64,000 nucleotides of DNA from Candidatus Omnitrophota bacterium (lineage in GTDB: Bacteria > Omnitrophota > Gorgyraeia > Gygaellales > Profunditerraquicolaceae). The position numbers and the translations under genes were made by a program. The stretch spans positions 12,766-76,765 of the forward strand of contig JAQURC010000001.1 in NCBI GenBank assembly GCA_028715785.1. The letters run 5' to 3'. The first letter of the stretch is position 1; the number at the start of each line of letters is the position of its first letter. The notes below the pieces were generated by a model. The model was not told where the DNA came from and did no database searches. It saw nothing but the letters and a program-made list of their open reading frames with translations. Below, in pieces: positions 11,442 to 34,385 of this stretch.

Positions 11442-11447
11442 TCCAGA

Positions 11448-11473: not shown

Positions 11474-11493
11474 TCTGTGGATAACTTAGAATA

Positions 11494-12735: not shown

Positions 12736-14192
12736 AAATATTATTCGTTATGCCCAGGGTAGGCGCGTGGGCGACGCACGGCATTCACCGGTCACCGAAC
12801 CAGCTTTACGCGCACTGGGCTGCGTATGCGCGGGAGAGGGGTTACGAAGATGTCGCGGTCATCGACGGAAGGGCCCTGGAAATACCCATGGAGCAGCTGG
12901 TGGAGCAGGTAAAGGCAAAAAACCCGGATGTAGTGGTCATGGGAGAGCAACTGCACGGTTATGGCGGCTACGGCGTATTACGGCATTTTAAAGACGCGGC
13001 CATTGGGATTAAAAAAGCGCTGCCTAAAACAAAAATAATTCTCGGCGGGCTATGGTATTCAGCAATGCCGGTGCCGACATTAGAGGAGAACTCCGCGGTT
13101 GACTTTGTGGTTATGGGTGAAGAGGAATCTTTCGGAGACTTGATCGAAGCAATAGATAAAAATAAGCCGCTTGGCGATGTGGGTGGCGTTACTTCCCGTA
13201 TTGACGGGGCAATTGTTATGGGCCCGCATAAGCCGCTGATGGAAGATTTAGACAAGCTTCCTTTGCCGGCTTATGATTTATTTCCGATGGATAAATACGT
13301 GGGCCATACTTATTGGAAACCGTTTGTGGATATGGTAACCTCAAGGGGCTGCCCTTCAGCCTGTACTTTTTGCTACGAATGGGACCAGTTTGATCCGCGT
13401 TCGCCTTCAGATTTCTTGAAATGGCGGGCTAAATCTCCGGAAAGAGTCATGGAAGAAATGAATCTTCTGCATAGAAAATACGGGGTTAAAGTCGTAGTTA
13501 TTCAGGACGATAATTTTAATGTCGACCCTAAAAGAGTGCAGAAGTTTTGCGAACTTAAAAAAGCATCGAATAATCCAATCAAGTGGGTATCTTTAGGCCG
13601 GGCTGTTGATTGGGTCAATTGCGAATCCATCCTGCCCCTGATGAAAGAAAATGGTTTATTCATGGGCGTTTTTGGCATCGAGGTGACGACCCAGTCAGAG
13701 CTTAAACGGATCGCCAAAGGCATTACTATCGACCAGATTAAAAAAACCATAGAGATCTTACGCAAGAATGATATCGCTATCGTGGCGGATATCATGATGG
13801 GTTTTGATTATGACACCGAGGCTATCGTCAAGCAGAGGTTTGAGTTTACCGATATGGTGGACCCGGATATTTTATGGGTAGGTTATGTTACCCCTGCCCC
13901 GAATTCACCGATGTGGAGGATTGCTCTAAAGAAAAACTGGATTGATCCTAAGAAAGTAGATTTTAGCCAATGGGATTTTCTCCATCCGGTAATCCCTACG
14001 GACCATCTATCCACAGAAGACCTTGGCCGTTTGGGTTCCTGGTGCATGCGTGAATTTTTCTCAAAGCCCGGGCGGATAAACAGGATTATGGAGAGTAATT
14101 TTGATCCGTTAGCCAAGCTCTGTTTCAAGGATGTTATGGATGGAATAGGCAAATGGGAAGCAGTCGCGACAAAAGGCGAAGTGCAGATATAA
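12732..14192 (+). CDS. Class B (cobalamin-binding) radical SAM enzyme
   Basis: N-terminal B12-binding-like domain, then radical SAM SRGCPSACTFCYE (CxxxCxxC). 486 aa. The first ~300 nt are markedly GC-rich. Confidence 0.85.
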   Translation: MKILFVMPRVGAWATHGIHRSPNQLYAHWAAYARERGYEDVAVIDGRALEIPMEQLVEQVKAKNPDVVVMGEQLHGYGGYGVLRHFKDAAIGIKKALPKTKIILGGLWYSAMPVPTLEENSAVDFVVMGEEESFGDLIEAIDKNKPLGDVGGVTSRIDGAIVMGPHKPLMEDLDKLPLPAYDLFPMDKYVGHTYWKPFVDMVTSRGCPSACTFCYEWDQFDPRSPSDFLKWRAKSPERVMEEMNLLHRKYGVKVVVIQDDNFNVDPKRVQKFCELKKASNNPIKWVSLGRAVDWVNCESILPLMKENGLFMGVFGIEVTTQSELKRIAKGITIDQIKKTIEILRKNDIAIVADIMMGFDYDTEAIVKQRFEFTDMVDPDILWVGYVTPAPNSPMWRIALKKNWIDPKKVDFSQWDFLHPVIPTDHLSTEDLGRLGSWCMREFFSKPGRINRIMESNFDPLAKLCFKDVMDGIGKWEAVATKGEVQI

Positions 14193-14197
14193 TGTGC

Positions 14198-14251
14198 CAC
14201 CCCGCGCTTATAGGAATTGCGCGGGTGTGCCCTTGTGGGCTAGGAGAATAA
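14198..14251 (+). promoter_or_regulatory. Conserved two-hairpin 5' leader element (copy 1) ending in AGGAG-N7-ATG of the acp gene
   Basis: CCCCGCGCTTATAGGAATTGCGCGGGTGTGCCCTTGTGGGCTAGGAGAATAAATG. Same module upstream of rpsT, pilT and prfB. Confidence 0.6.
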
Positions 14252-14491
14252 ATGGATATAAAAATAAAAGTTAAAGAAGTGTTGGCGAATTTGCTAAAAG
14301 TTAAAATTGAAGAGTTAAAGGATGAGGTATCTTTGATCAACAGTATCGGCGTGGATTCTACCGAGATGGTGGAGTCGGTAATTGCCCTGGAAAAATCATT
14401 TGGGGTCAAGCTTAGCCCCAAGGAGATCACCAAGAATTCGACCATTAACGATATCGTAAATAATATCCAGCCAAAGTTATCCACAGAGTAG
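14252..14491 (+). CDS. Acyl carrier protein
   Basis: 79 aa. GVDSTEMVE phosphopantetheine-attachment motif. The stop TAG lies inside the REP palindrome. Confidence 0.8.
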   Translation: MDIKIKVKEVLANLLKVKIEELKDEVSLINSIGVDSTEMVESVIALEKSFGVKLSPKEITKNSTINDIVNNIQPKLSTE

Positions 14492-14513
14492 GGGAGGTTT
14501 AAACCTCCCCTAC
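14488..14513. repeat. 26-bp palindrome GTAGGGGAGGTTTAAACCTCCCCTAC (REP-like, copy 3), left flank TTATCCACAGA
   Basis: Identical core. Overlaps the acp stop codon. Confidence 0.8.
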
Positions 14514-14540
14514 TACGGGAATGGGAAAGGAGTTAGAGGG

Positions 14541-15341
14541 GTGAAGATTGTTGACTTGAGCCTGCCCATCGATGAAAAGGCTTTTGAGGTGCACAAGGTT
14601 GAGATCGAGCGGATAACCCATAAAGCCGGCGTCGATAAGTTCAACCGGGTGATTATGGGCAAGACCCTCTTAGGCAGAATAAAATACGCCTTAGGCGCCC
14701 GCATCGTCAGAAAGGGGCAGCTGCCCGATGAAGAATTCCTCTCTTTGGAGATTGTACATGCTCCGGTGCATATAGGAACACACCTGGATTACTCCTTCCA
14801 TTATGGATCAAAATCAGAAAATCGCCCTTCCAAGACCGCGGATGAGATCCCGTTAGAATATTGTTACCAGGACGGGGTTAAACTTGACTTCCGGCATAAA
14901 AGACCCAATGAAGTAATCAAGGCGCCGGATATAGAAAGCGCCCTGAAAAAGATAAATTATCAGCTTAAGCCTTTAGATATTGTGTTATTGCACACCGCCG
15001 CCGATAAGCTCTATGGCGGGCCAAAATATTTCTCGGATTATCCCGGGGTTGATCCTGGGGCCATCGGTTATCTTTTGGATAAAGGAATTAAAATCTTTGG
15101 CACAGACACGATGGGGATTGACCGGCCATACAAATTTATGCTTAAGGAATTCCTGGAAACAGGGGACCCCAAAACTTTTTATCCGGCGCATTTTTATGGA
15201 CGGAAAAGAGAATTTATTCATATAGAACGCCTGGCTAACTTAGAGAAGTTGCCGGATTGTGGATTTAAAATTATCTGTTTTCCTATACGCATCAAAAATA
15301 CCGGGGCCGCCTGGGCCAGAGTGGTGGCTTTTTTAGATTAA
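14541..15341 (+). CDS. Putative cyclase family protein (PF04199-like; kynurenine formamidase/polyketide cyclase fold)
   Basis: HAPVHIGTHLDYSFHYG matches the HxGTHxDxPxH cyclase signature. GTG start after AAGGAG. Confidence 0.7.
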   Translation: MKIVDLSLPIDEKAFEVHKVEIERITHKAGVDKFNRVIMGKTLLGRIKYALGARIVRKGQLPDEEFLSLEIVHAPVHIGTHLDYSFHYGSKSENRPSKTADEIPLEYCYQDGVKLDFRHKRPNEVIKAPDIESALKKINYQLKPLDIVLLHTAADKLYGGPKYFSDYPGVDPGAIGYLLDKGIKIFGTDTMGIDRPYKFMLKEFLETGDPKTFYPAHFYGRKREFIHIERLANLEKLPDCGFKIICFPIRIKNTGAAWARVVAFLD

Positions 15342-15455
15342 TGGCGTAAAACGGGTCCTGTCTTGGGTATTTTCTAGCGCTAAACGCGCGTCGAAAACAC
15401 CCAAGCCACCCGTTTTATCAAAATCTAAAAAAGCAAAATAATAGCGGAGGATGAA

Positions 15456-15896
15456 ATGGGACATACTTGCAATTCAATAATTATTAAGGCGCCTTATGAG
15501 TTAGTTTTTGATATCTCTAATGACATCCCGCGCTGGACGCAGTTGTTCGGCAGCGAATATAAAAAAGCCGAAATCCTAAAAAAAGAAGCCAACAAAATCA
15601 CTTTTCGCCTTACCGACGACGAAGATAAATCCTGGGTTTCCTGGAGATTGTTATACAAGGATAATTTCTTTACCTATTCGGAGCGCTATGAACCGAAATT
15701 CCCCTTTAATTATATGAAAATTATCTGGCTCTATACGCCAAAGCCCGAAGGGATAGAGTTAACTTGGATCCAGCATTTCCAGATGGATGAAAAGGCCAAG
15801 TTTAACGATGAGCAGGTGGAAGGTTTTATCAATAAACATTCCAAAGAGAACTTATTGATTTTTAAGAAGGTTATTGAAGAGGCAGCACTTAAATAA
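15456..15896 (+). CDS. SRPBCC superfamily protein (polyketide cyclase/dehydrase-like, Bet v1 fold)
   Basis: 146 aa. IIKAPYELVFDISNDIPRWTQLF N-terminus and overall pattern typical of Polyketide_cyc2/SRPBCC proteins. Confidence 0.55.
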   Translation: MGHTCNSIIIKAPYELVFDISNDIPRWTQLFGSEYKKAEILKKEANKITFRLTDDEDKSWVSWRLLYKDNFFTYSERYEPKFPFNYMKIIWLYTPKPEGIELTWIQHFQMDEKAKFNDEQVEGFINKHSKENLLIFKKVIEEAALK

Positions 15897-15910
15897 AGGT
15901 TATTCACAAT

Positions 15911-15936
15911 GTAGCGGACGTTTAAACGTCCGCTAC
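15911..15936. repeat. 26-bp palindrome GTAGCGGACGTTTAAACGTCCGCTAC (REP-like, copy 4; covariant arms)
   Basis: Same architecture and TTTAAA centre as 5776. Both arms changed in a complementary way. Confidence 0.75.
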
Positions 15937-15967
15937 GGTCAGGTTAGGATTATACGGGAGGTTAATT

Positions 15968-16744
15968 ATGAGCACAGATTTAAAAGGCAGGATTGCCATT
16001 GTTACCGGTGCCAGCCGCGGTATCGGTAAATCTTTAGCTTCAACCGCAGCAGGTTTGGGCATAAATTTAGTTATCGGCGCCAGAGGACAAGGCCCTTTAG
16101 AAGAAACTGCGGATGAGCTTGCCAGGAAATATAAGGTCCGGGTATTGCCGGTTGCCTGCGACGTCACAAAATTAGAGGACTTGGAAAATTTGGTAAACAA
16201 GGCTAAAGCTGAATTCGGCAAAGTCGATATTTTGATTAATTGCGCCGGAGTTTCCTCGCAATATCCTTTTAACGAGCAGCCGATCGAGGATTTTGAAAAA
16301 TTGGCGCATACGAATTATCTGGGCTATGTGCGGTTAATCCGCCTGGTAATTAACGATATGATCAAACAAAAATACGGGGCGATCATCAATATCGTTTCCG
16401 GCTCGACGCTGGTGGATCCTGTCCCCAGAAATTTCATTGTTTACAGCTCGCTTAAAGTCGGCCTGCGCGCTTTTTCAAAAGGCCTGTTTTGGGAGTTGCG
16501 CGACCACGGGATCAAGGTTACTTCTATTTTACCCGGAGTCACCGATACGGATTTAACCGGCAAGCTTAAGGATATTACCAGCGATACATCGCGCCTTATG
16601 AGCACGCAGGCAATCGAGGATGCGGTGCGTTTTGCTTTGACTGTGCCGGCTAATGTTTGTCCTCTTGAGATCTCGGTAATTAACCAACAAACACCTTGGA
16701 CTGCTCCGGTAATACCGTTTAAACAGCAGCACCCGGGAAAATAA
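15968..16744 (+). CDS. SDR-family oxidoreductase (ketoreductase-like)
   Basis: TGASRGIGKSLA cofactor motif. YSSLKVGLRAF (YxxxK) catalytic motif. Confidence 0.85.
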   Translation: MSTDLKGRIAIVTGASRGIGKSLASTAAGLGINLVIGARGQGPLEETADELARKYKVRVLPVACDVTKLEDLENLVNKAKAEFGKVDILINCAGVSSQYPFNEQPIEDFEKLAHTNYLGYVRLIRLVINDMIKQKYGAIINIVSGSTLVDPVPRNFIVYSSLKVGLRAFSKGLFWELRDHGIKVTSILPGVTDTDLTGKLKDITSDTSRLMSTQAIEDAVRFALTVPANVCPLEISVINQQTPWTAPVIPFKQQHPGK

Positions 16745-16757
16745 GCGGAGAGAAGAA

Positions 16758-17369
16758 ATGAAAAAAATATTTTTTGCGGCAGCAACAGTAGTTTTATTTA
16801 CGGCAGGGGTTTGTTTAGCTGAAGGCGGTAATTTATTAATTGATGATTTTGAAATTTCAGTTACCGGCGGCCCCGAAGGAACGGTTGATTTCGGCGCAGG
16901 TAACGGCTCAAGCGTGGAGGTAACAGCGGCTAGTGATATTAAAAATAGCGGCAATCAGGCATTAAAGGTAGTTTATGACGCATCTCCGGGAGGATATATT
17001 TATGTAGCCCGCGGCTTTGGGCTTGACGCCAGGAACGCTAACTGGCCAATCCAGCCTTCGGATATTAAATGGGAAGAATACAGCGCGATATCATTCTATG
17101 TTTACGGAGCGGATTCTAAAGCGAAAATCGCTTTTGATATAAAAGATAACGGCGGGGAGATCTGGCGTTTTATGACCGAGGATGATTTTAAAGGCTGGAA
17201 GAAAGTAGTTTGCAGTTTTGATAAATTTGTCGTGCGCGACGATTGGCAGCCAAACGACGCGGACAATAACAAGCAGTTGGATTTTCCGGTTAAGATCTTC
17301 CAATTTGAACCGCTTCCCGGATCAAAAGGGACTTTTTATTTTGACACGGTGGAGCTGGTTAGAAAATAA
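16758..17369 (+). CDS. Secreted beta-sandwich protein (CBM11/CIA30-like), function unknown
   Basis: Signal peptide MKKIFFAAATVVLFTAGVCLA. Gly/aromatic-rich beta-strand pattern. Confidence 0.35.
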   Translation: MKKIFFAAATVVLFTAGVCLAEGGNLLIDDFEISVTGGPEGTVDFGAGNGSSVEVTAASDIKNSGNQALKVVYDASPGGYIYVARGFGLDARNANWPIQPSDIKWEEYSAISFYVYGADSKAKIAFDIKDNGGEIWRFMTEDDFKGWKKVVCSFDKFVVRDDWQPNDADNNKQLDFPVKIFQFEPLPGSKGTFYFDTVELVRK

Positions 17370-17382
17370 GAAAGGTGGGGAT

Positions 17383-17796
17383 ATGAATAACCAGGATGTT
17401 AAAAATTTAAAGAAACGTTATTTTATCTGGCTCTATAAAACCGCCAAAGAAACCTTTGATAAATATGAACGCAAGTTTACGCAAGTCGATATCGATAAGG
17501 ATATCCTGGCGGAAATGGAGAAAGAGCTTTTAGGTTCCTACCTTCCCCATGAAAAAGATGCCCTGCAGAGGCAGATCAACGATTTTCAGAAATATATCGA
17601 AAATAAGGAAAAGGCCTGTTCAGAACTCAGGGACCAGCATAGAAAGATCAATCCGGATTTTATTTTCTCGGAAATAAAACTGAATGCGATTGAGAAGGTA
17701 ATCGTCAGGGGGTTGGGCAGGAGGGGGCTGGAAGAGATCAGGTCCCTTTATGAAAAAGAGATGGCCGAACGCATCTTAAAGAGCACGGAGCATTGA
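17383..17796 (+). CDS. Hypothetical coiled-coil protein
   Basis: ATG at 17383 after AAAGGTGGGG. The upstream part of the ORF-track frame overlaps the previous gene. Confidence 0.4.
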   Translation: MNNQDVKNLKKRYFIWLYKTAKETFDKYERKFTQVDIDKDILAEMEKELLGSYLPHEKDALQRQINDFQKYIENKEKACSELRDQHRKINPDFIFSEIKLNAIEKVIVRGLGRRGLEEIRSLYEKEMAERILKSTEH

Positions 17797-18707
17797 TGTT
17801 AATCGACGCGCATAGCCACTGGCTGCCGGATGAAATAATTAATAATGCCCATTTTTTCCATAAGGGCTGGGGGGATATCCAGGCGCAGCTGGCGATCATG
17901 GAGGCGCTGGGGATCAACCGGGCGGTTTTAAGTTATCCTAATTCGGACGCGCATTTGAAATTAGGCAGTGTCAGCCAAGTGGCGCATATTTATAATGATA
18001 ATGTCGCCAAAATTTTAAAGGCCCATCCCAAAAGATTTATCGGCGCCGCAGTTTTGCCTGTGGATAATTCCGTCGATATGCTGGAAGAGCTAAGGCGGGC
18101 AATCAATGAACTGGGTTTTAAGGCAATTTCCCTTGCCTCAAGCTATAACGGTATATATTTAGACGATAAGATGTTTTTACCTATATATAAAGAAGCGCAA
18201 GAGAAGGATATCCCGATCTTTGTGCATCCGCAGATTGTAAACCCGATAGGTTTTGAGCGGGTCAAGGATCCGCTGCTTACTCCGGTTGTTGAATATGTTT
18301 TTGACACCACGATTTCAATCGGCAAGCTTTTAATGTCGGATATTTTGCGCCAGTATCCTAAAGTAAAATTTATTTTCGCCCATTTCGGCGGGGCAATCTG
18401 CTATCTTAAGCAGCGTTTTGACGCCACCTATCAGATGCTGCGGGGGATGAACTTTGTCAAAGACCTGCAGGGGCTTCCTTCGGATTATCTTAAGAATATT
18501 TACGTTGATACCAGCGGCGATACTACTAGCGCGAATTTTCTGCTTGCCCTTGAACTTATGGGGCCTAAACATATTTTGTGGGGCAGCGACTGGCCGGCAA
18601 AGAAAGATGTTGCCAGCGGCATCAAAGCCGTCAACGATTTGGATATATCCCAGGAGAATAAACAGAATATCCTGGGGGGAAATTTAGAAAAATTATTTGT
18701 TCTTTAG
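17793..18707 (+). CDS. Amidohydrolase-2 family metal-dependent hydrolase (TIM barrel)
   Basis: N-terminal IDAHSHW metal-binding motif. ~300 aa. Confidence 0.65.
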   Translation: MMLIDAHSHWLPDEIINNAHFFHKGWGDIQAQLAIMEALGINRAVLSYPNSDAHLKLGSVSQVAHIYNDNVAKILKAHPKRFIGAAVLPVDNSVDMLEELRRAINELGFKAISLASSYNGIYLDDKMFLPIYKEAQEKDIPIFVHPQIVNPIGFERVKDPLLTPVVEYVFDTTISIGKLLMSDILRQYPKVKFIFAHFGGAICYLKQRFDATYQMLRGMNFVKDLQGLPSDYLKNIYVDTSGDTTSANFLLALELMGPKHILWGSDWPAKKDVASGIKAVNDLDISQENKQNILGGNLEKLFVL

Positions 18708-18933
18708 TATTTTGCTCTTTCAGGATATTGTTCGCGTGCGAAATTTTTCGCCGTGTGCTGCGGTTTACGGCTCGCTCCGGCAGCGCAGTGTTCCTTGCGT
18801 ATTATGAGATTGCCTGCGCTCGCCGTAACTCCTTGCACACATTTGCCGAAAAATTTCTAATGCACGCTCCACAATATCCTTCGAGTAAAATTTAACCGAG
18901 CAAGTCTCGTCACCGCAAAACGGAGTAAGGATT

Positions 18934-19308
18934 ATGATAAAATTATTGAATTTAATTATCGGGGGAGCGGCGGGGACAATTGCCAGGTATCTTTTGGCCG
19001 GCGTTGTTTACAGGTTTATGGGCGCCGGGTTCCCTTACGGCACCTTAATTGTCAATATCAGCGGCTGTTTTATCCTGGGTTTTCTAGCTTCTTTATCGGA
19101 TAAGAAATTTATCCTGGGCCCGGATGCCAGGATCCTGTTGATGATCGGTTTTTGCGGAGCGTATACCACATTTTCAACCTTGATCTTTGAAACCGACAGT
19201 TTAGTCAGGAATGGCCAGGCAGTCCGCGCTTTTACCAATATTTTTGCCAGCGTAATTTTTGGTTTTATATTATTCAGGATAGGCAGCTTATTAGGAGAGA
19301 TAATATGA
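18934..19308 (+). CDS. crcB: Fluoride ion channel CrcB/Fluc
   Basis: 124 aa with four TM segments. GxxGTxxRY-like N-terminus (GGAAGTIARYLL). Confidence 0.85.
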   Translation: MIKLLNLIIGGAAGTIARYLLAGVVYRFMGAGFPYGTLIVNISGCFILGFLASLSDKKFILGPDARILLMIGFCGAYTTFSTLIFETDSLVRNGQAVRAFTNIFASVIFGFILFRIGSLLGEII

Positions 19309-19634
19309 AAATTCCCGCGGATGGAAAGCTTTTAAGGATTTTTATCGGTGAGGCGGACAAATGGAACGGCCGGCCGCTTTATGAGGAGATTATATTGTTG
19401 GCCAAGAAGGAAAAATTGGCCGGGGCAACGGCAATCAAAGGATTTATGGGGTTTGGCTGTAAAAGCCATATGCATACCGCTAATTTATTGCGGCTTTCCG
19501 AGGACCTGCCGGTGGTTATTGAAATCGTGGATAGCGAAGAGAAAATCAATCAGTTTATTCCGCAGTTGGATAGCATGGTTAAGGAAGGGCTGGTTACTCT
19601 CGAAAAAGCAAACGTAATTATGTACCGGGCGTAA
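19305..19634 (+). CDS. DUF190 family protein (commonly co-transcribed with crcB)
   Basis: 109 aa. LRIFIGEADKWNGRPLYEEII pattern. 4-bp overlap with crcB. Confidence 0.65.
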   Translation: MKIPADGKLLRIFIGEADKWNGRPLYEEIILLAKKEKLAGATAIKGFMGFGCKSHMHTANLLRLSEDLPVVIEIVDSEEKINQFIPQLDSMVKEGLVTLEKANVIMYRA

Positions 19635-19658
19635 TCGTAATTAAGAGGAGAAACTAAA

Positions 19659-20408
19659 ATGCAAATGCAGAAGAATGTTCATCTCACAGGCAAGGATTTA
19701 ACGGAAATGGTCCAGCTTCGGAGGCAGGATGTGGGCAAATACGCCATTGTTCCCGGGCCGCGCGACCGGCTGGATGTTTTAATGAAAAAAATAGAAAACC
19801 CGGTGCGTAATTTTTCGTTTATGGAATACACTATGTATACCGGCACTTATGAGGGGATCAAGGTTACCGGGATTAACGGCGGGAGGTTTTCCACGGACAC
19901 TTCGATTACTACCGAGGTAATGTGCAATGCCGGGATACAAAATATTATCCGCATCGGCACAGCCGGCGCCCTTGATGAAAATATCAAAGTTGGCGATCTG
20001 TTTGTAGTAGATGAGGTTATCCGCGGGGACGGGGTAACCCCTTATTATGTGGATAAAGATTTTAAAACAGTCAGTGACAAGAAGATCTCCGACCTTCTTT
20101 TTGAGATTGCCAAAGGCATGGGGTTAAACGTGCACCGCGGCAAGGCATGGACTACGGATGCGCTTTTACGCGAAACCCGCGAAATTGTCGAAGCCAAGCG
20201 CAAAGAAGGAGCAAGGGCGGTAGATATGGTTTCCTCAACGCTCTTGACTATCTGCCAGACTTATAATATTAAAGCCGGATCAATCCTGGCGGTAAGCGAT
20301 AACGTGATCACCGGAGAGATGGGCTTTATGAATCCACTTTATTATATGGCGGAAAGTAATTTAATAAAGATTGCATTGGAATTAGTTAAAAAATTAGAGG
20401 GCAAATAA
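19659..20408 (+). CDS. DeoD-type purine/MTA nucleoside phosphorylase (PNP_UDP_1 family)
   Basis: TGTYEGIKVTGINGG...IIRIGTAGAL...MVSSTLLTICQTYNIKAGSILAVSDNV parallels DeoD/Udp conserved blocks. Confidence 0.7.
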   Translation: MQMQKNVHLTGKDLTEMVQLRRQDVGKYAIVPGPRDRLDVLMKKIENPVRNFSFMEYTMYTGTYEGIKVTGINGGRFSTDTSITTEVMCNAGIQNIIRIGTAGALDENIKVGDLFVVDEVIRGDGVTPYYVDKDFKTVSDKKISDLLFEIAKGMGLNVHRGKAWTTDALLRETREIVEAKRKEGARAVDMVSSTLLTICQTYNIKAGSILAVSDNVITGEMGFMNPLYYMAESNLIKIALELVKKLEGK

Positions 20409-20411
20409 ACT

Positions 20412-20556
20412 TGTCATTGCGAGCCCCGAAGGGGCGAAGCAATCTCGCTTTTAAGATTGCGCAGCCTGTTCCGAGCGAAGCGAAGGAATCCGGTTGCGAG
20501 GGGCTGCTGGTTTGCTTCGGCTTCGCCTCGCAACCGCTGCGCTCCTCGCAATGACA
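20412..20556. repeat. MITE-like element, TGTCATTGCGAG family, copy 2 (145 bp, composite)
   Basis: Terminal IRs TGTCATTGCGAG / CTCGCAATGACA with an extra internal partial copy (GGTTGCGAGG...CCTCGCAACC). Its translation forms the spurious N-terminal extension of ORF 20457. Confidence 0.7.
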
Positions 20557-20561
20557 CTAAA

Positions 20562-21482
20562 ATGACTATGAAATTTTCTCCCTTATTTTGGCCGATACAA
20601 TTGAAGGGCAATGTAATTTACATCTTGGATGAAACTAAATTGCCGCAAAGGTTGGTTTATCTCAAGGCCAAAAATTACTTAGAGGCATGCCGGGCAATCA
20701 AGCAGATGAAGACCCGCGCCGTAGGCCAGGTGCTTTTGGTAATGTATGCCTTTCTTTTAAGCAAGCGGCAGAATAAAAATTTAGCCAAAGTCGCCAAAGC
20801 CATTAACGCCACCCGGCCGACCCTATCCTTTAAATTTTTAACCGATATGGTTTTAAGCTGGGAAAAAGGCGGCGCGCCGCTTGAAAAAAGTATTTTAGGT
20901 TTCCTAGCGATGCTTAAAACCAAACGTATCGAGCAGGCCAGGGAGGCGGCTAAATTACTTAAAGACGGCGATGTAGTCTTGACACACTGTAATATCAGCG
21001 GCCTGATGCCCTTAATTGCCGAGTTTGCCAAAGAGCAGGGCAAGAAAATAAGTTTTTACGTTACGGAAACCCGTCCGTATTTGCAAGGCTCGCGCCTTAC
21101 TGCCTGGGAAATCCAGCGCGCGGGTTTTGATGTTACGATCATCACCGATAATATGGTGGCATATTTATTATCGTTAGGTAGAGTGACCAAAGTTATCGTC
21201 GGAGCAGACCACTTAACCTTAAACGGGGACATCGCCAATAAGATCGGCACCTATCAGATCGCGGTAGTCGCCAGGTATTTCAAGATTCCTTTTTACGTAA
21301 TCTGTCCGCCGGCATCGAAATTAAAAAGCGGAAAAGAAATTAAAATTGAAATCCGGCCGGATAATGAATTAAAAATTTATCAGGGGCTGCATTTGGCGCC
21401 CAAAGAGGTTAAAGCGTATTATCCGGCCTTTGACGTTACGCCGGCAAAATTAATTACCCGGCATATTCATTTGGGGGTTTAA
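20562..21482 (+). CDS. mtnA: S-methyl-5-thioribose-1-phosphate isomerase (eIF-2B alpha/beta/delta family)
   Basis: YVTETRPYLQGSRLTAWE and GADHLTLNGDIANKIGTYQIAVVA blocks. The ATG at 20562 follows the MITE, whose terminal CAATGAC supplies an upstream in-frame ATG-ACA-CTA-AAA-TGA mini-ORF. Confidence 0.8.
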   Translation: MTMKFSPLFWPIQLKGNVIYILDETKLPQRLVYLKAKNYLEACRAIKQMKTRAVGQVLLVMYAFLLSKRQNKNLAKVAKAINATRPTLSFKFLTDMVLSWEKGGAPLEKSILGFLAMLKTKRIEQAREAAKLLKDGDVVLTHCNISGLMPLIAEFAKEQGKKISFYVTETRPYLQGSRLTAWEIQRAGFDVTIITDNMVAYLLSLGRVTKVIVGADHLTLNGDIANKIGTYQIAVVARYFKIPFYVICPPASKLKSGKEIKIEIRPDNELKIYQGLHLAPKEVKAYYPAFDVTPAKLITRHIHLGV

Positions 21483-22478
21483 ATGCCAGAGCAGGAATTA
21501 AAACTGGAAATTATCCAGGTAGGCAGGCGGCTTTATGCTGCCGGCCTGGCCGTAGCCAAGTCCGGAAATTTAAGCGCACGGCTTGACAGCGAGAATATCC
21601 TGATTACCGCCACCGGAACAGCCTTGGGCCAGTTAAAAGAAAGCGATATCGTTAAGGTAAATTTAGCCACCGGTAAATCCGAGGCAGGGCCGAACCCCAG
21701 CTCCGAACTGCCTTTGCACAGTTTAGTCTATAAAAATTTTCCGGCTAAGGTTGTAATCCATTGCCATCCGCCGCTAATTAACGGATATTTTGCCGTCGCC
21801 AAAACGCTTAAGGCAATGAGTTTTGAAACTAAATTTTATCTCGGAGATATTCCGGTAATCCCCCAGGAAACCCCGACGGTGACGGCTCCTGCGCCGGTTA
21901 TCGCGGCATTAAAAACAAATAATCTGGTTATCTTGAAGAATCACGGGACAGTGGCAATTGGCGATAAGTTTGAAGAGGCCCTAAGTATTACCGAAGCATT
22001 AGAGGAGGCGGTTAAAAGCGCCGCCGTTGGCCGGCTGTTTGATAAAAACATTTTGGATGATTTAGACTTGGCTTTAAAAGATGATTTAAAGCGCAATGAC
22101 CCGGCCTATGCCATGTTTAGCCTGCCGCATATCCAGGCAATCGTGGATTTAGTCAACAAGGATGAGTTTATCGCCCAAAAGGGAAAAGAGCTGGGCCTGA
22201 CGGTGCAGCTGGCGATCAAGCTCGATGACACGAGCGAGGTTTTTAAATTTAGTTTTGAGCAAGGCAAAATCGTAAAACTGGATACTGACAGCCTTGCCCC
22301 TTTTGTTATTTCCGCGCCCCGGCCTGTATGGGAGCAGGTATTTTTAGGCAAACTGGATTCATTTGTGGCAGTTACCCAGGGTAAAATGAAATTAAGCGGC
22401 CAATTAGGCCAGCTTTCCAAATGGTATGTCCCGTTTAACCGCCTTTTTGTTTTATTCCGGGAGGTAAAAATCAAATGA
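21483..22478 (+). CDS. Class II aldolase/adducin-domain protein fused to a C-terminal SCP2-like domain (candidate methylthioribulose-1-P aldolase or dehydratase)
   Basis: VVIHCHPPLINGYFAV class II aldolase metal-binding block. C-terminal ~110 aa with GKMKLSGQLGQLSK is SCP2-like. Confidence 0.65.
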   Translation: MPEQELKLEIIQVGRRLYAAGLAVAKSGNLSARLDSENILITATGTALGQLKESDIVKVNLATGKSEAGPNPSSELPLHSLVYKNFPAKVVIHCHPPLINGYFAVAKTLKAMSFETKFYLGDIPVIPQETPTVTAPAPVIAALKTNNLVILKNHGTVAIGDKFEEALSITEALEEAVKSAAVGRLFDKNILDDLDLALKDDLKRNDPAYAMFSLPHIQAIVDLVNKDEFIAQKGKELGLTVQLAIKLDDTSEVFKFSFEQGKIVKLDTDSLAPFVISAPRPVWEQVFLGKLDSFVAVTQGKMKLSGQLGQLSKWYVPFNRLFVLFREVKIK

Positions 22479-23962
22479 ATTTAAAATGCCCGCTTTATAT
22501 CAACGGACAATTTATCGAAACCGCGGAAAAACAGAATATCATTAATCCCTCTACCGGTAAGGTGATTGCTGAGTCTTCTCATGCTTCGGTAAAAGAGGTG
22601 GAACTGGCTATATCCGCTGCCCGAGAAGCTTTTGATCATGGGCCCTGGCCGCATTTTTCTTTAGCTGAGCGTAAGGAATTTATTTCAAAGATCGCTCAAG
22701 GCATTTTAGCTAATGCTGGAGAACTTGCCCAGTTGGAGACACACAATACCGGCAAGCCGATCAAAGAAACTACTTTTATGGATATCCCCTCTAGCGCGAA
22801 AACTTTTGAGTTTATGGCGGACAATTTTGCCGCCTATCTTCACAATGAAAAAGTCAATATTCCTGAAGATGCCCAGGCCAAGATAGTTTCTGAAGCTATA
22901 GGGGTGGTGGTTTTGATTGTGCCTTGGAACTATCCGCTATTAATCGCCTGTTGGAAGCTGGCTTCCGCTTTGGCTGCCGGTAACACGGTTATTTTAAAGC
23001 CCTCCAGCCTTACTCCGCTTACGGCCTTAGAACTTGCAAAAATTATCCATCAAGCCGGTTTTCCCGCCGGAGTGGTAAATGTAATTAACGCAACCGGAGC
23101 AAAAATCGGGGAACATCTTTGCGCGGATAAACGCGTGGATATGGTCTCCTTTACCGGCAGCAACGAAACAGGCAAACAGGTCCTGCAGTATTCTTCCAAA
23201 AACGTGAAGAAGCTGATTATGGAGCTTGGCGGCAAATCCGCCAATTTGATATTTAATGATGTGGATTTGGATGTGGCGGTGAATAGCTCCCTTACCTCTA
23301 TTTTTTTAAACCAGGGGCAGATGTGCACGGCGATGTCGCGGATTTTCGTGCAAGAGGGTATTTATGATAATTTTCTGGCCAGCTTTATCGAGAAGGCCAA
23401 ACGCATAAAATTGGGTTTAGCCGATAATTTTGAAACGCAGATGGGCCCCTTGATCACCGACGCGCAGCGCAAAAAAGTCATTGCTTATATTGACAAGGCA
23501 AAGGCCGAAGGAGGCCAGGTCTTGTGCGGGGGGAAAATTCCGGAAGACGCGGAACTGAAAAACGGTTATTTCTTTGAGCCCACGGTTTTAGTTGACGTCG
23601 GAGCGCATTTGCATATAGCCAAGGAAGAGGTTTTTGGCCCGGTAGTCTTGGTGCATAAATTTTCCAGTCCGGATGAAGCCGTGGCTTTAGCCAATAGCGT
23701 GGATTTTGGTTTGGCTGCCTGCATTTGGAGCAAAGATTTATCTTTGGCACAGGATTTGGCCAAAAAAATAAATGCCGGCACGGTTTGGATCAATACTTAC
23801 GGCATGTTTTATAACCAGCTTCCTTACGGCGGGTTTAAGCAGAGCGGCTTCGGCAAGGAGCTGGGCCGGCACGGATTTTTGGAATATACCCGTTTAAAAA
23901 ATATAATTATCGACCAGTCCCAGGCAGGCAAGCCCCTGGTTAATTACTGGTACGGATTCTAA
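22475..23962 (+). CDS. NAD(P)-dependent aldehyde dehydrogenase
   Basis: 495 aa. ELGGKSANLIF and catalytic Cys in QGQMCTAMSRIFV. FTGSNETGK. ALDH-family architecture. Confidence 0.85.
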   Translation: MNLKCPLYINGQFIETAEKQNIINPSTGKVIAESSHASVKEVELAISAAREAFDHGPWPHFSLAERKEFISKIAQGILANAGELAQLETHNTGKPIKETTFMDIPSSAKTFEFMADNFAAYLHNEKVNIPEDAQAKIVSEAIGVVVLIVPWNYPLLIACWKLASALAAGNTVILKPSSLTPLTALELAKIIHQAGFPAGVVNVINATGAKIGEHLCADKRVDMVSFTGSNETGKQVLQYSSKNVKKLIMELGGKSANLIFNDVDLDVAVNSSLTSIFLNQGQMCTAMSRIFVQEGIYDNFLASFIEKAKRIKLGLADNFETQMGPLITDAQRKKVIAYIDKAKAEGGQVLCGGKIPEDAELKNGYFFEPTVLVDVGAHLHIAKEEVFGPVVLVHKFSSPDEAVALANSVDFGLAACIWSKDLSLAQDLAKKINAGTVWINTYGMFYNQLPYGGFKQSGFGKELGRHGFLEYTRLKNIIIDQSQAGKPLVNYWYGF

Positions 23963-25506
23963 TGAATGCAGCCAGACTCTTAGAGCAGCGCGCAAAAGAA
24001 TACGGGCAGAAAACGGCGGTTATTTTCCGCCAGGAGGAGATTTCATTTGCCCGGTTAAAGGACAGGGTATTTTCTCTAAGCGCCAGCCTGCTTAAGCTGG
24101 GCGTCAAGCCGCATGATTTAGTCGCAATTTATCTTCCTAACCGGCCGGAATATATTGTCAGCTATCTGGCGATCTGGTCCATCGGCGCCTGCAGCGTGCC
24201 GTTGGATTTTATGCTTACCGAAGATGAAATAACCTCCTGCCTGGCGCACTGCCAGGCAAAAATTTTAATTACCAAACATAAAGCCGGTATCTCATTTGCA
24301 AATTTAAAGGCCAGGCTCCCTTTATTAAAAAATATTATTTTCTGTCAGTCAGAAGATAAAGAATGCTTAAGTTTCGAGAAATTGCTGGAGGAGGGGGCCA
24401 AAGAAAACCCCGGAATAGAAATTAACGAGAAAGATCCCGCCATAATTTTTTATACCTCCGGCACTACCGGTAAGCCCAAAGGCGTCTTGATCAATTATGC
24501 CCAATTGGATGCCCCGCCAAAATCCATGGCCTTTTTTGTCAACTCGGATTTAAGCGCAAAAGATACCGCGCTCTGCGCTTTGCCATTCTCCCACTTAGGC
24601 GGGTTAATTTATATCCAGAATATGCTCTCTTTCGGCTTATCCCTGGTCCTAATGGAGCGTTTTATGCCTTTGGATTTTTTGAAAAACGTGCAGAATTATA
24701 AAGTTAATTTTTTCTGGATTGTCCCTTCGATGTATTACGCGCTCCTGCAGTTAAAAGAGTTTGAGACATTTGATTTATCCAGCCTGCGCTGGATTGTTAC
24801 TTTCGGCGCTTCCAATTCTCCGGATGCTTTACGCAGGTTTCATCAGTTTTGTCCCAAGGCTTATCTTTTAAACGGCTGGGGCCTGACCGAGACCAATGCC
24901 CCCACCGTAGTGCTGCCGATGGGCTCGGAAAATATCGAAAGCGTAGGGCGCCCTGCCCCTTGGATTGAGGTCAAGATATTTTCAGAGAGCGGCCAGGAGT
25001 TGCCCGCAGGCCGGATAGGGGAAGTAGCGGTAAAGAGCTGGGTAGTTACCGACGGATATTTTAAGGATGCGGAATTAACGCAGGAAACTATCCGCGCTGG
25101 CTGGTTTTACACCGGAGACTTAGGCAGGTTTGATGTCCGGGGTTTTCTTTATATCGTCGGCAGGAAAAAAGAAATGATTAAGGTCGGCGGCGAGATTGTT
25201 TTTGAGCCGGAGGTGGAGGCAGCCTTACAAAAATATCCGGATATTGCGGAAGCCGCGGTAATCGGAGTGGCCGATAAGCTAAGAGGAGAGGCGCCCAAGG
25301 CATTTTTGGTGGCTAAAGAAGGCAGGAAAGTTTGCGAAGAAGATTTACGTTATTTCTTGCGCCAGCATTTGGCGCATTTTAAGATTCCGCATTATTTCGA
25401 ATTTTGCGCCTGTCTTCCCAAGAACCGCGTTGGTAAGATTGATAAAGAACGATTACGTTTGTGTCATTGCGAGGGCGAAGCCCGAAGCAATCTTAAACAT
25501 ATATAA
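23962..25506 (+). CDS. AMP-dependent acyl-CoA synthetase/ligase
   Basis: YTSGTTGKPKGV AMP-binding motif. The last ~14 codons and the stop are supplied by the downstream MITE. Confidence 0.8.
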   Translation: MNAARLLEQRAKEYGQKTAVIFRQEEISFARLKDRVFSLSASLLKLGVKPHDLVAIYLPNRPEYIVSYLAIWSIGACSVPLDFMLTEDEITSCLAHCQAKILITKHKAGISFANLKARLPLLKNIIFCQSEDKECLSFEKLLEEGAKENPGIEINEKDPAIIFYTSGTTGKPKGVLINYAQLDAPPKSMAFFVNSDLSAKDTALCALPFSHLGGLIYIQNMLSFGLSLVLMERFMPLDFLKNVQNYKVNFFWIVPSMYYALLQLKEFETFDLSSLRWIVTFGASNSPDALRRFHQFCPKAYLLNGWGLTETNAPTVVLPMGSENIESVGRPAPWIEVKIFSESGQELPAGRIGEVAVKSWVVTDGYFKDAELTQETIRAGWFYTGDLGRFDVRGFLYIVGRKKEMIKVGGEIVFEPEVEAALQKYPDIAEAAVIGVADKLRGEAPKAFLVAKEGRKVCEEDLRYFLRQHLAHFKIPHYFEFCACLPKNRVGKIDKERLRLCHCEGEARSNLKHI

Positions 25507-25558
25507 TTATTTAGGATTGCTTCGTCGTCGCAAAAAAACGCTCCTCCTGGCAATGACA
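25463..25558. repeat. MITE-like element, TGTCATTGCGAG family, copy 3 (96 bp)
   Basis: TGTCATTGCGAGG...GAAGCAATC...GATTGCTTCG...CTCCTGGCAATGACA. Overlaps the 3' end of the acyl-CoA ligase gene. Confidence 0.7.
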
Positions 25559-26613: not shown

Positions 26614-26699
26614 TGTCATTGCGACTGCGAGGCGAAGCCGAAGCAGGAAGCAATCTCTTTAAAAGGATTGCTTCGTCGCTGCCGCTCCTGGCAATGACG
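26614..26699. repeat. MITE-like element, TGTCATTGCGAG family, copy 4 (86 bp)
   Basis: TGTCATTGCGACTGCGAGG...GAAGCAATC...GATTGCTTCG...CTCCTGGCAATGACG. Its right terminus provides the ATG of the downstream lipoprotein gene. Confidence 0.7.
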
Positions 26700-30114: not shown

Positions 30115-30197
30115 TACCGGGAGAGGGACTTGAACCCACATGAGCTTGCGCTCGGCAGCTTTTGAGGCTGCTGCGTCTGCCATTTCGCCATCCCGGC
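30115..30197 (-). tRNA. tRNA-Leu (anticodon CAA)
   Basis: Reverse complement GCCGGGATGGCGAAATGGCAGACGCAGCAGCCTCAAAAGCTGC...GTGGGTTCAAGTCCCTCTCCCGGTA. Anticodon loop CTCAAAA. Long variable arm. TTCAAGT T-loop. Discriminator A. No encoded CCA. Confidence 0.75.
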
Positions 30198-30263: not shown

Positions 30264-30339
30264 GGGGCTGTAGCTCAGCTGGGAGAGCACTTGCATGGCA
30301 TGCAAGGGGTCAGGAGTTCGATCCTCCTCAGCTCCACCA
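30264..30339 (+). tRNA. tRNA-Ala (anticodon GGC) with encoded CCA
   Basis: GGGGCTGTAGCTCAGCTGGGAGAGC...CTTGCATGGCATGCAAG...GGTTCGATCC...CAGCTCCACCA. G3:U70 alanine identity pair present. Confidence 0.85.
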
Positions 30340-33676: not shown

Positions 33677-34385
33677 GGGGGACGTCCTCTTAGGGGACAC
33701 CCTTATATTAAAATAATTGTTAGAAGCGGCCTCTTTTTACGTCAATTAAAGTAAAAGGAGGATTTTTTATGCCAAGAAAAGCGCGAGAGTTGATTGACGG
33801 GGGACATTACCATGTTGTAACCAGGGGGATTGATTGTAGGAGATTATTTAGGGATGAAACAGATAACCAGTATTTTTTAGACATCATGGCTGCTAATCTG
33901 CCGAAATTCAAAATTTCAATTTTTCATTATTGTCTTATGGTAAACCACATTCATCTGTTGATTAAAGCCATAAGAGCAGCGGATCTGCCAAAGTTTATGC
34001 AGGTAGTTTTACAAGGATACGCTCATTATTTCAGAAAGAAATACCTTTCGGCAGGATTTATTTTTCAGAACCGATATAGAAGCCGGTTAATCGATAATGA
34101 TCTCTATCTCTTGGAATGCGGCCGGTATATCGAAAAGAACCCTCTGAGATCAAAAATAGTGTCAGAGCTTTCCAGATATCGCTGGAGCAGTTATCTGCTA
34201 TATGCAACTGGTAAACAAAATGACATAGTTAAGGCATTGGATCCTTTATATTTAGATTTAGCCAGTACAGACGAGAAACGCAGGGAGGCGTATGTTAATT
34301 ATGTCTTACAGGGGCGGCCATATGAAGATATTTTAGATAAAGAATTTCATATCAAATAGGGTGTCCCTTTTTAGGACGTCCCCCC
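33677..34385 (+). mobile_element. REP-associated tyrosine transposase (RAYT) unit: tnpA-REP gene flanked by 26-bp inverted repeats
   Basis: Left IR GGGGGACGTCCTCTTAGGGGACACCC (33677-33702). Right IR GGTGTCCCTTTTTAGGACGTCCCCCC (34360-34385). They are reverse complements apart from the central loop. Confidence 0.75.
33769..34359 (+). CDS. IS200/IS605-like Y1 (HuH) transposase of the REP-associated (RAYT) type
   Basis: 196 aa. HuH motif GHYHVVTRG. Second His cluster NHIHLLI. Catalytic Tyr region QNRYRSRLIDND...RYIEKNP. Typical RAYT size. Confidence 0.8.
   Translation: MPRKARELIDGGHYHVVTRGIDCRRLFRDETDNQYFLDIMAANLPKFKISIFHYCLMVNHIHLLIKAIRAADLPKFMQVVLQGYAHYFRKKYLSAGFIFQNRYRSRLIDNDLYLLECGRYIEKNPLRSKIVSELSRYRWSSYLLYATGKQNDIVKALDPLYLDLASTDEKRREAYVNYVLQGRPYEDILDKEFHIK

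Follow-up and report, generated by a model that had tools for sequence, protein, structure and literature searches.

Here, we examine a 64-kb stretch of DNA from a Candidatus Omnitrophota bacterium (the whole of which is called the window hereafter) and, within it, five consecutive plus-strand genes at positions 19659-25506. Head to tail, these open reading frames (ORFs) encode a purine nucleoside phosphorylase (PNP), an MtnA-type isomerase, a class II aldolase fused to an SCP2 domain, an aldehyde dehydrogenase (ALDH), and an AMP-forming acyl-CoA ligase (Table 1). The gene order and domain content that had been read from the sequence in the original prediction are borne out by these ORFs and their Pfam matches. 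The MtnA/aldolase, aldolase/ALDH, and ALDH/ligase pairs are contiguous or share 1-4 nt, a spacing that is expected within a single operon. The mechanically called ORF of MtnA begins with a TTG at position 20457, inside a miniature inverted-repeat transposable element (MITE); the likely start is the ATG at 20562, from which the N-terminus agrees with that of the relative L001 (MKFSPLFWP).

The five-gene arrangement is not due to chance. Among the 80 best Omnitrophota loci from a scan of one genome per species (63-89% identity; labelled Omnitrophota, generic 'bacterium', or 'uncultured Planctomycetales'), the aldolase has MtnA as a neighbour in 72 of the 74 loci in which this could be tested, ALDH in 65 of 67, PNP in 49 of 62, and the ligase in 40 of 60. 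The domains PF01048, PF01008, and PF00596, i.e., the trio by which a dihydroxyacetone phosphate (DHAP) shunt is recognized, lie on consecutive plus-strand genes in the window and are adjacent in most of these 80 relatives as well as in four distant lineages. The phosphorylase, isomerase, and class II aldolase match the published phosphorylase variant of the shunt, so that the claim of a DHAP-shunt-like trio made in the original prediction holds. At the family level, the module is predicted to function like a DHAP shunt on the basis of this trio and of its catalytic residues, and the catalytic equipment of the aldolase, of MtnA, and of PNP (with a purine-type Asp) appears to be intact.

The aldolase domain (residues 1-185) carries the residues of a metal-dependent class II aldolase. 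Twelve positions are invariant in 26 diverse members (G28, N29, S31, E75, H79, H93, H95, E115, H154, G155, G160, and E174), including all three metal-binding His (93, 95, and 154) and the catalytic Glu75, which stands at the position of Glu76 in DrdA; the DHAP phosphate site is kept as G28, N29, and S31 (GN.S) together with a PSSE motif. G28, N29, S31, E75, H93, H95, and H154 line up with FucA and DrdA. The family profile matches FucA at 104-118 bits over its full length and DrdA at 107 bits, whereas it reaches 41 bits on the MtnB structure 4M6R and covers the N-terminal part only. On the aldolase itself, the MtnB model TIGR03328 gives 62.8 bits against a cut-off of 137.05, and PRK09220 matches residues 4-98 only. 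With these profile scores, and with the NCBIfam MtnB models far below cut-off, we reject an MtnB dehydratase and consider the protein an aldolase-type enzyme. The counter-case raised in the original prediction, an MtnB-like aldolase accompanied by mtnC and mtnD, is therefore not what the locus encodes, as neither of these genes occurs in the window. FucA and DrdA are equally distant from the family, which passes the threshold of no equivalog model, so that sequence does not support orthology to Ald2 or DrdA.

In the AlphaFold2 (AF2) model of the full-length fusion (pLDDT 90.9, pTM 0.79), the SCP2 domain, formed by the C-terminal 127 residues (about 205-331), comes directly after the aldolase catalytic core and is separated from it only by a disordered linker (residues 193-203). 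The Pfam score of this domain is marginal (21.9 bits versus a cut-off of 21.3). A profile of 24 C-terminal domains matches Thermus thermophilus SCP2 in the PDB at 8.8e-8, and the AF2 model of the domain alone (pLDDT 95.6) is placed by Foldseek on 2CX7, the T. thermophilus SCP2 (TM 0.84, E 3.6e-9), with further matches to UbiJ-SCP2 (TM 0.57-0.60) and to the C-terminal domains of the alkylsulfatases SdsA1/Pisa1 (0.50-0.62). We regard it as a genuine SCP2 domain by sequence and predicted fold, with lipid binding as a putative property. The fusion noticed in the original prediction is hence upheld by the profile search, by a confident two-domain model that recovers the SCP2 fold, and by Foldseek.

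In the protein collection, more than 1100 relatives of the fused protein are present, whereas the exact fusion protein of the window has no entry in the contig index. Of these relatives, the 120 closest are 80-96% identical, and the named ones among them are Candidatus Omnitrophota/Omnitrophica; within Omnitrophota, identity ranges from 63 to 96%. A search of 50%-identity representatives returned about 30 further full-length fused clusters (24-59% identity), indicating that the fusion is a family and not a one-off. Searching for stand-alone SCP2 proteins of this subfamily gave mostly fragments of the same fusion.

The phosphorylase is the most conserved of the five proteins (median identity of 88% among Omnitrophota) and belongs to a divergent DeoD/Udp-like group. 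Its NCBIfam scores are far below the cut-offs for Udp (117 versus 280 bits) and DeoD (84-89 versus approximately 230-232). It scores only 18.5 bits against the equivalog model of 5'-methylthioadenosine (MTA) phosphorylase (MTAP; TIGR01694, cut-off 274.85), the model expected of a DHAP-shunt phosphorylase. The suggestion that this gene encodes a DeoD-type candidate MTA phosphorylase consequently stands for its divergent DeoD/Udp group and falls for any likeness to MTAP. Membership of HpnG (TIGR03468, 50 versus 187.1 bits) and of futalosine hydrolase (27.5 versus 124.7) was rejected on the scores, and a uridine phosphorylase was rejected because the uracil-binding insert of Udp is absent while the equivalent of the purine-type Asp204 of DeoD (in SDN) is kept. 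In a residue comparison with E. coli reference sequences, the EME ribose motif of Udp, DeoD, and MTAN reads DMV[ST]S in all five cluster-type PNPs (the window and its L084-L088 orthologues), the ribose-binding Glu being replaced by Val; alignment to the Streptococcus pyogenes Udp structure returned the same change from EME to DMV. Judged by sequence, the cluster PNPs are a distinct, uncharacterised subfamily.

The MtnA identity proposed for the second gene is borne out at the subfamily level, with 204.4 bits on TIGR00524 (cut-off 185.85); on the MtnA equivalog TIGR00512 the protein reaches 220 bits, below the cut-off of 279. It contains the Cys of a THCN and the Asp of a GAD motif, which we take to be the MtnA catalytic pair. 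The ALDH is best matched in NCBIfam by BADH (531 bits, below 669) and in the PDB by betaine-aldehyde and generic ALDHs, and besides the Omnitrophota loci it adjoins the aldolase in the distant relatives L084, L086, L088, and L089. The ligase scores 430 bits on PRK06187 (below 476) and has FadD5 and the feruloyl-, oxalyl-, and 4-coumarate-CoA ligases as its nearest structures; in L084 and L086, orthologues of 53-54% identity open the cluster. Both enzymes are generic members of their families. As both are co-conserved in distant relatives, aldehyde oxidation followed by CoA activation, which the original prediction had suggested, is the natural reading of this pair.

Together with genes that precede them, the five genes make up a conserved cluster (positions 8198-25506 of the window), in which they form one module. 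Upstream on the same strand lie genes of a B12-binding radical S-adenosylmethionine (SAM) enzyme, a ketosynthase (KS), a chain-length-factor (CLF)-like partner, an acyl carrier protein (ACP), cyclases, a short-chain dehydrogenase/reductase (SDR), and an Amidohydro_2 protein (Table 1), with a CBM11 protein listed between the SDR and a conserved 137-aa protein. The first KS keeps its Cys-His-His triad (motifs STGC...FHMTD...AHGSS); at the aligned positions of the second, Arg replaces Cys, Asp replaces the second His, and no His occurs in the segment of the first. Both score as FabF-like. With an intact KS, a CLF-like partner lacking the triad, a discrete ACP, and cyclases, the cluster resembles a type II polyketide synthase (PKS) system. 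The radical SAM enzyme matches BchE at 199.5 bits and HpnJ at 152 bits, both below cut-off, and its nearest structure is AprD4 (62 bits). Its orthologues (50-63% identity) adjoin ALDH or PNP in L084, L086, and L088, and a radical SAM enzyme approximately 40% identical to these stands beside PNP in L089. Amidohydro_2 lies upstream on the same strand in 51 of 52 Omnitrophota loci. KS-CLF pairs have been catalogued in Candidatus Omnitrophica and other phyla as occurrences only (PMC10132072); the parts of this catalogue that we consulted name no product and make no mention of radical SAM enzymes, and the cluster in the window, which also has an ACP, SRPBCC and PF04199 cyclases, and an SDR, is of this kind.

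Gene context was sampled in ten lineages (loci of relatives carry the prefix L). In distant relatives the fused aldolase is only 37-40% identical to that of the window, yet much of the same gene set is found in a different order, and reciprocal BLAST confirmed gene-by-gene orthology with the window cluster. Together, this orthology and the shared gene set indicate that the five genes are a module of a larger co-inherited cluster. At L084 (on a 3.36-Mb contig) and L086, the cluster starts with a PadR regulator, the ligase, PNP, MtnA, a small IF-2B paralogue, the fused aldolase, ALDH, and the B12-binding radical SAM enzyme, and continues with a small protein, an SRPBCC-like protein, ApbA, (TIGR04076), KS, CLF, ACP, cyclase, SRPBCC, and an MFS protein. 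L088 is a tight operon of KS, CLF, ACP, cyclase, SRPBCC, SDR, a 137-aa protein, the B12-binding radical SAM enzyme, and Amidohydro_2, followed by PNP, a phosphopantetheinyl transferase, MtnA, the small IF-2B paralogue, the fused aldolase, and ALDH. L089 is a compact operon without KS genes (B12-binding radical SAM enzyme, PNP, MtnA, small IF-2B, fused aldolase, and ALDH). At approximately 3 kb from it, a canonical MTAP is encoded on the minus strand (13961-14746; TIGR01694 278 bits, above cut-off), suggesting that the PNP of the cluster is not just a housekeeping enzyme for MTA.

The link to radical SAM enzymes is found repeatedly and independently. The B12-binding enzyme belongs to the same cluster in the window, L084, L086, L088, and L089, in differing gene orders, and at L091 (1082-2737; P0188, 551 aa) an aldolase without SCP2, 34% identical to that of the window, is fused to a radical SAM/SPASM protein and lies downstream of MtnA and the small IF-2B paralogue. 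A 694-aa protein that joins a B12-binding radical SAM enzyme to the aldolase-SCP2 fusion (P0146) has truncated domains and comes from a contig of 3.4 kb; we do not rely on this protein, a possible chimera of assembly or deletion. More reduced contexts were also seen: L085 has an LpxL-like gene, PNP, MtnA, small IF-2B, and the fused aldolase; L090 has PNP remnants, the fused aldolase, and a ligase beside cobalamin genes; L094 has small IF-2B, the fused aldolase, an alanine dehydrogenase, and an acetyl-CoA hydrolase/transferase (two genes downstream of the aldolase); and L087 has the fused aldolase alone.

The small IF-2B/MtnA paralogue (141-186 aa) lies directly upstream of the aldolase, mostly overlapping it, in seven non-Omnitrophota loci, including L094, which has no full-length MtnA nearby. 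Conceivably, it acts as a subunit of the aldolase or as its partner. The window has no such ORF between MtnA and the aldolase, as these two genes abut. In another Omnitrophota lineage (L092, 7175-8621, and L093), an unfused 206-aa aldolase, 55% identical, occupies the same syntenic position before the RlmN-GDSL genes. It is preceded by an LsrF/ADH-synthase-like aldolase of the DeoC family, with a Zn-dependent alcohol dehydrogenase further upstream in L092, and adjoins spermidine synthase and AdoMet decarboxylase genes.

Table 1 Positions of the genes and elements discussed in the text (window coordinates unless a relative's locus is named).
Feature	Position	Strand	Match or remark
Small DUF2621/PCP_red-like protein	8198-8464	+	Orthologues in L084, L086
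ApbA/PanE-type reductase	8461-9468	+	Orthologues in L084, L086
TIGR04076 protein	9473-10060	+	Orthologues in L084, L086
MITE copy	10085-10161		Match to terminal inverted repeat (TIR) core
KS, Cys-His-His intact	10179-11441	+	56-74% identity to KS/CLF pairs of L084, L086, L088
CLF-like partner, triad lost	11494-12735	+	56-74% identity to KS/CLF pairs of L084, L086, L088
B12-binding radical SAM enzyme (BchE/HpnJ-like)	12732-14192	+	PF02310, PF04055
ACP	14252-14491	+	Orthologues in L084, L086, L088
PF04199 cyclase	14541-15341	+	Orthologues in L084, L086, L088
SRPBCC polyketide cyclase	15456-15896	+	Orthologues in L084, L086, L088
SDR ketoreductase	15968-16744	+	Orthologues in L084, L086, L088
Conserved 137-aa protein	17383-17796	+	Orthologue in tight operon of L088
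Amidohydro_2 protein	17793-18707	+	Orthologue in tight operon of L088
CrcB fluoride channel	18934-19308		Between Amidohydro_2 and PNP
DUF190 protein	19305-19634		Between CrcB and PNP
Divergent hexameric-type (DeoD/Udp-like) PNP, 249 aa	19659-20408	+	PF01048 (PNP_UDP_1) 3e-33
MITE copy in PNP-MtnA spacer	20413-20555		Match to TIR core; TIR GTCATTGCGAG/CTCGCAATGAC
MtnA-type (eIF-2B-related) pentose-1-phosphate isomerase, 306 aa	20562-21482	+	PF01008 (IF-2B) 4.5e-56
Class II aldolase-SCP2 fusion, 331 aa	21483-22478	+	Aldolase_II (PF00596) 8e-38; SCP2 21.9 bits
NAD(P)+ ALDH, 495 aa	22475-23962	+	Aldedh PF00171 9e-167
AMP-forming acyl-CoA (or acyl-ACP) ligase, 514 aa	23962-25506	+	AMP-binding PF00501 5e-84; AMP-binding_C PF13193
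MITE copy at ligase 3' end	25463-25557		Match to TIR core
MITE copy at RlmN/GDSL gene junction	26615-26698		Match to TIR core
Small IF-2B paralogue, L084	9583-10008
Small IF-2B paralogue, L086	9306-9785
Small IF-2B paralogue, L088	9534-10004
Small IF-2B paralogue, L085	9361-9879
Small IF-2B paralogue, L089	9568-10008
Small IF-2B paralogue, L094	9528-10028
Small IF-2B paralogue, L091	529-1089

The domain identities, the conserved catalytic residues, and the co-inheritance with radical SAM and KS genes are observed; what the substrate is, which way flux runs, and where the thioester goes we infer. The reading that we tentatively favour, at a little under an even chance, is a phosphorolytic DHAP shunt that disposes of the 5'-deoxyadenosine formed by the radical SAM enzyme of the cluster, with DHAP and acetyl-CoA as the products returned. 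PNP would strip the base from a 5'-deoxy-5'-X-adenosine, most likely 5'-deoxyadenosine (X = H), although MTA would undergo the same chemistry. The MtnA-type isomerase would then convert the 5-deoxypentose-1-phosphate to 5-deoxypentulose-1-phosphate, which the metal-dependent class II aldolase domain would split into DHAP and X-CH2-CHO (acetaldehyde in the case of 5'-deoxyadenosine). The aldehyde would be oxidized to the acid by ALDH and converted to a CoA thioester (acetyl-CoA if X = H) by the AMP-forming ligase. Since an NAD(P)+-dependent ALDH in practice runs toward the acid, from which the ligase then gives the thioester, flux is expected to run from the nucleoside to X-CH2-CO-SCoA. In this way, an inhibitory radical SAM by-product would be removed at its source, and its carbon returned as DHAP and an acyl-CoA usable by the adjacent ketosynthase system.

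We favour X = H because the recurring partner of the module is a radical SAM enzyme, and this in two unrelated classes (B12-binding and SPASM). Both classes share the reductive cleavage of SAM, which normally yields 5'-deoxyadenosine, and radical SAM enzymes are inhibited by this by-product of their own. The acetyl-CoA hydrolase/transferase near the aldolase of L094 also fits acetate as a product. The disposal of 5'-deoxyadenosine in small-genome anaerobes is only partly known. In described systems, the phosphorylase DHAP shunt, or 5-deoxyribose disposal, leads from a 5'-deoxynucleoside over 5-deoxypentose-1-phosphate and 5-deoxypentulose-1-phosphate to DHAP and an aldehyde, and known DHAP shunts handle both MTA and 5'-deoxyadenosine (PMC6079011, PMC10986504).

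The first three steps proposed here follow the same logic and order as those of MtnP-MtnA-Ald2 of Rhodospirillum rubrum and R. palustris, where the genes are also clustered; a kinase variant of the shunt occurs in extraintestinal pathogenic E. coli (ExPEC). In contrast to MtnP-MtnA-Ald2, the phosphorylase of the window is of the divergent hexameric DeoD/Udp-like type rather than an MTAP, the aldolase belongs to a separate clade with an SCP2 domain, the aldehyde is apparently oxidized and CoA-activated rather than reduced to the alcohol, and the module sits in a radical SAM/KS-CLF-ACP cluster. Salvage of a radical SAM by-product through an isomerase plus a class II aldolase is likewise performed by DrdK-DrdI-DrdA of Bacillus thuringiensis (PMC6079011; structures 6BTD/6BTG). 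DrdA has the catalytic Glu and the three His in common with the aldolase of the window. However, that pathway is entered through a kinase instead of a phosphorylase and has no ALDH, ligase, or SCP2, and DrdA is a stand-alone protein of approximately 220 aa.

Several observations weigh against a shunt that clears 5'-deoxyadenosine. If the aldehyde moiety is acetaldehyde, the SCP2 domain has no obvious use, and its role is left unexplained. Five to six genes for the removal of a by-product would be unusual inside a biosynthetic operon, and the usual task of a ligase in type II PKS clusters is to load a primer other than acetate. The ligase is of the FadD/4CL type and not an Acs-type acetate ligase, and none of the five proteins reaches an NCBIfam equivalog cut-off. 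The cluster PNP lacks the ribose-binding Glu and the inter-subunit phosphate Arg of Udp/DeoD. In the aldolase, the invariant Glu115 occupies the place of the aldehyde-pocket Tyr of FucA and DrdA, implying that the true substrate may differ. Finally, an Omnitrophota subclade (L036) retains MtnA, the fused aldolase, and ALDH without PNP and the ligase, and has a class IV aminotransferase/aminodeoxychorismate-lyase-like gene (6190-7020) in the position of PNP, between a divergent Amidohydro_2 gene and MtnA; by synteny, L039, L043, L050, L061, L064, L069, L070, L076, L080, and L083 show a similar gap. It is because the SCP2 domain, the type of the ligase, the altered ribose site of PNP, and the change from Tyr to Glu in the aldehyde pocket are left unexplained that our preference stays tentative.

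The SCP2 domain would find a place if the module were biosynthetic. By phosphorolysis, isomerization, and retro-aldol cleavage, it would then trim a 5'-deoxyadenosyl group that comes from SAM to an acyl unit of two carbons, on which the KS-CLF-ACP system would draw. We regard this as the main rival, rather less likely than the clearance of 5'-deoxyadenosine, but there is a real chance that the locus represents a new biosynthetic use of the DHAP shunt. In one variant, a small 5'-substituted adenosine (MTA or a product of the B12-binding radical SAM enzyme) would be converted to X-CH2-COOH, which the ligase would load as a non-acetate primer. In the other, the radical SAM enzyme would adenosylate a hydrophobic polyketide or lipid intermediate, in the manner of HpnH and MqnE, and PNP, MtnA, and the aldolase would trim the ribose so that a two-carbon extension is left; R-CH2-CHO would then proceed to the acid and to the CoA thioester while the SCP2 domain holds the hydrophobic tail at the aldolase active site. 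SCP2 domains serve enzymes with hydrophobic substrates, such as UbiJ/UbiT in ubiquinone synthesis, the alkylsulfatases SdsA1/Pisa1, and MFE-2/SCPx. The nearest folds of the domain found here are lipid- or isoprenoid-binding SCP2 proteins, including UbiJ and the substrate-recruiting domain of alkylsulfatases. Moreover, the domain begins straight after the catalytic core, at the position where the C-terminal tail of FucA closes the aldehyde pocket, and the Glu115 substitution lies in that pocket.

Gene context lends further weight to a biosynthetic role. The five genes are co-inherited with KS, CLF, ACP, cyclases, and the B12-binding radical SAM enzyme in four lineages with a rearranged order; in the tight operon of L088 the phosphopantetheinyl transferase gene is inserted between PNP and MtnA; and the ligase is the first structural gene after the PadR regulator in L084 and L086. 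A divergent PNP existing alongside a canonical MTAP in L089 is also in line with this role, and the nearest families of the radical SAM enzyme (HpnJ, AprD4, and BchE) include enzymes that act on sugar moieties. There is an analogy, and only that, with HpnH and HpnG of hopanoid synthesis and MqnE and MqnB of the futalosine pathway, where a radical SAM enzyme is likewise clustered with an enzyme of the PNP_UDP_1 family; following it, the module would act on a hydrophobic substrate, and the product would keep carbons of the ribose. Unlike in those systems, the radical SAM enzyme here is B12-binding and BchE/HpnJ-like, no adenosylating enzyme of the HpnH or MqnE type is present, and the phosphorylase is far below the HpnG and futalosine hydrolase cut-offs. 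B12-binding radical SAM enzymes are not known to adenosylate their substrates. Furthermore, the fused aldolase occurs without KS genes in L085, L089, L090, and L094 and alone in L087, and the aldolase-radical SAM fusion of L091 uses a different radical SAM class, for which a by-product common to radical SAM enzymes, as in the clearance of 5'-deoxyadenosine, provides a better fit than one specific chemistry.

The original prediction had assigned the genes to methionine salvage, through an anaerobic MTA DHAP shunt in which 2-methylthioacetaldehyde is oxidized to methylthioacetate and activated to methylthioacetyl-CoA (X = SCH3) rather than undergoing reduction to 2-methylthioethanol. Known DHAP shunts do take MTA as well as 5'-deoxyadenosine, ALDH and the ligase follow the aldolase, and no mtnB, mtnC, mtnD, mtnK, mtnN, or mtnW gene lies in the window; mtnC, mtnD, mtnW, and mtnK are also absent from the flanks of the relatives' loci. 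The polyamine genes beside the unfused aldolase of another Omnitrophota genome would be a source of MTA. On the other hand, PNP is not MTAP-like, L089 has a bona fide MTAP besides, and neither the window nor the flanks of the relatives' loci, as annotated with Pfam, contain a gene for sulfur recovery. The constant partners of the module are radical SAM and KS/ACP genes and not methionine or polyamine genes. We thus find nothing specific to methionine or MTA in what is a sub-module of a B12 radical SAM/KS-CLF-ACP cluster, and this context speaks for 5'-deoxyadenosine, or else for a role in biosynthesis, more than for sulfur salvage, making the methionine-salvage assignment improbable.

General catabolism of nucleosides and ribose-1-phosphate (X = OH), in which ribose-1-phosphate from a purine nucleoside would pass through ribulose-1-phosphate to DHAP and glycolaldehyde, and the latter through glycolate to glycolyl-CoA, is far less credible still. 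The PNP is of the DeoD/Udp type, and the NCBIfam ribulose-1-phosphate aldolase model matches weakly (64 bits), but this score is far under the cut-off of 300, and the radical SAM linkage and the SCP2 domain would be left unexplained. Ribose-1-phosphate is not a known substrate of MtnA-type isomerases. In the fluoroacetate pathway of Streptomyces cattleya, fluorinase, the PNP FlB, an isomerase, an aldolase, and a fluoroacetaldehyde dehydrogenase lead through 5'-fluoro-5'-deoxyadenosine (5'-FDA), 5-fluoro-5-deoxyribose-1-phosphate (FDRP), 5-fluoro-5-deoxyribulose-1-phosphate (FDRulP), and fluoroacetaldehyde to fluoroacetate. Although that pathway runs the same four-step PNP-isomerase-aldolase-ALDH chain on a 5'-substituted 5'-deoxyadenosine to a substituted acetate, with the same order of enzymes, and although the CrcB-DUF190 pair directly upstream of PNP brings it to mind, we reject a fluoro- or halo-metabolite route as next to impossible, because no fluorinase/chlorinase-type domain was found in the scanned window ORFs of at least 150 aa or in the precomputed annotation of L084-L090, CrcB occupies the position upstream of PNP in only 9 of 54 Omnitrophota relatives, and Rfam gave no fluoride riboswitch.

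For a shunt that removes 5'-deoxyadenosine, the locus suggests a version genetically tied to a particular radical SAM enzyme and carrying the aldehyde on to a CoA thioester. The searchable literature yielded no description of a fusion that joins SCP2 with a class II aldolase or with another enzyme of sugar phosphates, in agreement with the earlier remark that the fusion is apparently without precedent, nor of the added ALDH and ligase, of the small IF-2B paralogue, or of a link between a DHAP shunt and a B12-binding radical SAM/type II PKS-like cluster. The aldolase-SCP2 fusion is an abundant, strongly conserved, and unstudied family, which marks this conserved cluster in Omnitrophota as well as in several other lineages represented by metagenome contigs only. 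Should the module feed the ketosynthase, polyketide primers would have a new source and the ribose of SAM a new use; in a biosynthetic role, SAM would serve in a new way as a C2 donor or primer source, within a cluster conserved across Omnitrophota and other anaerobic lineages. Omnitrophota is a phylum without known cultured members, and either outcome would offer a concrete, assayable way into its metabolism.

The set had also been described as interrupted and bounded by MITEs. Four copies of one family are present in the window (77-143 bp; TIR TGTCATTGCGAG, internal inverted repeat GAAGCAATC/GATTGCTTC), and the 11-nt TIR core GTCATTGCGAG has 8 matches versus 0.58 expected. One copy does interrupt the set, filling the PNP-MtnA spacer, which is only about 6 bp long in L001. 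Another bounds it on the 3' side, where it swaps out the last three codons of the ligase and extends the protein by 12 residues. The 5' neighbour is the CrcB-DUF190 pair and not a MITE, so the description does not apply on that side. The fourth copy overlaps the junction of the RlmN and GDSL genes.

Elsewhere in the window, G+C content falls to 0.39-0.40 (versus approximately 0.46) in a stretch (33769-42000) that has an IS200-like Y1 transposase gene at its border (33769-34359); this stretch carries genes for ComEC, TPR proteins, a GT2 cellulose-synthase-like protein, and a GH26-like protein and may have been acquired horizontally. Two divergent tRNA genes (30115-30197 on the minus strand and 30264-30336 on the plus strand) are flanked by a 251-aa ORF that Pfam does not match and by an orthologue of the AP_endonuc_2 gene found in relatives.

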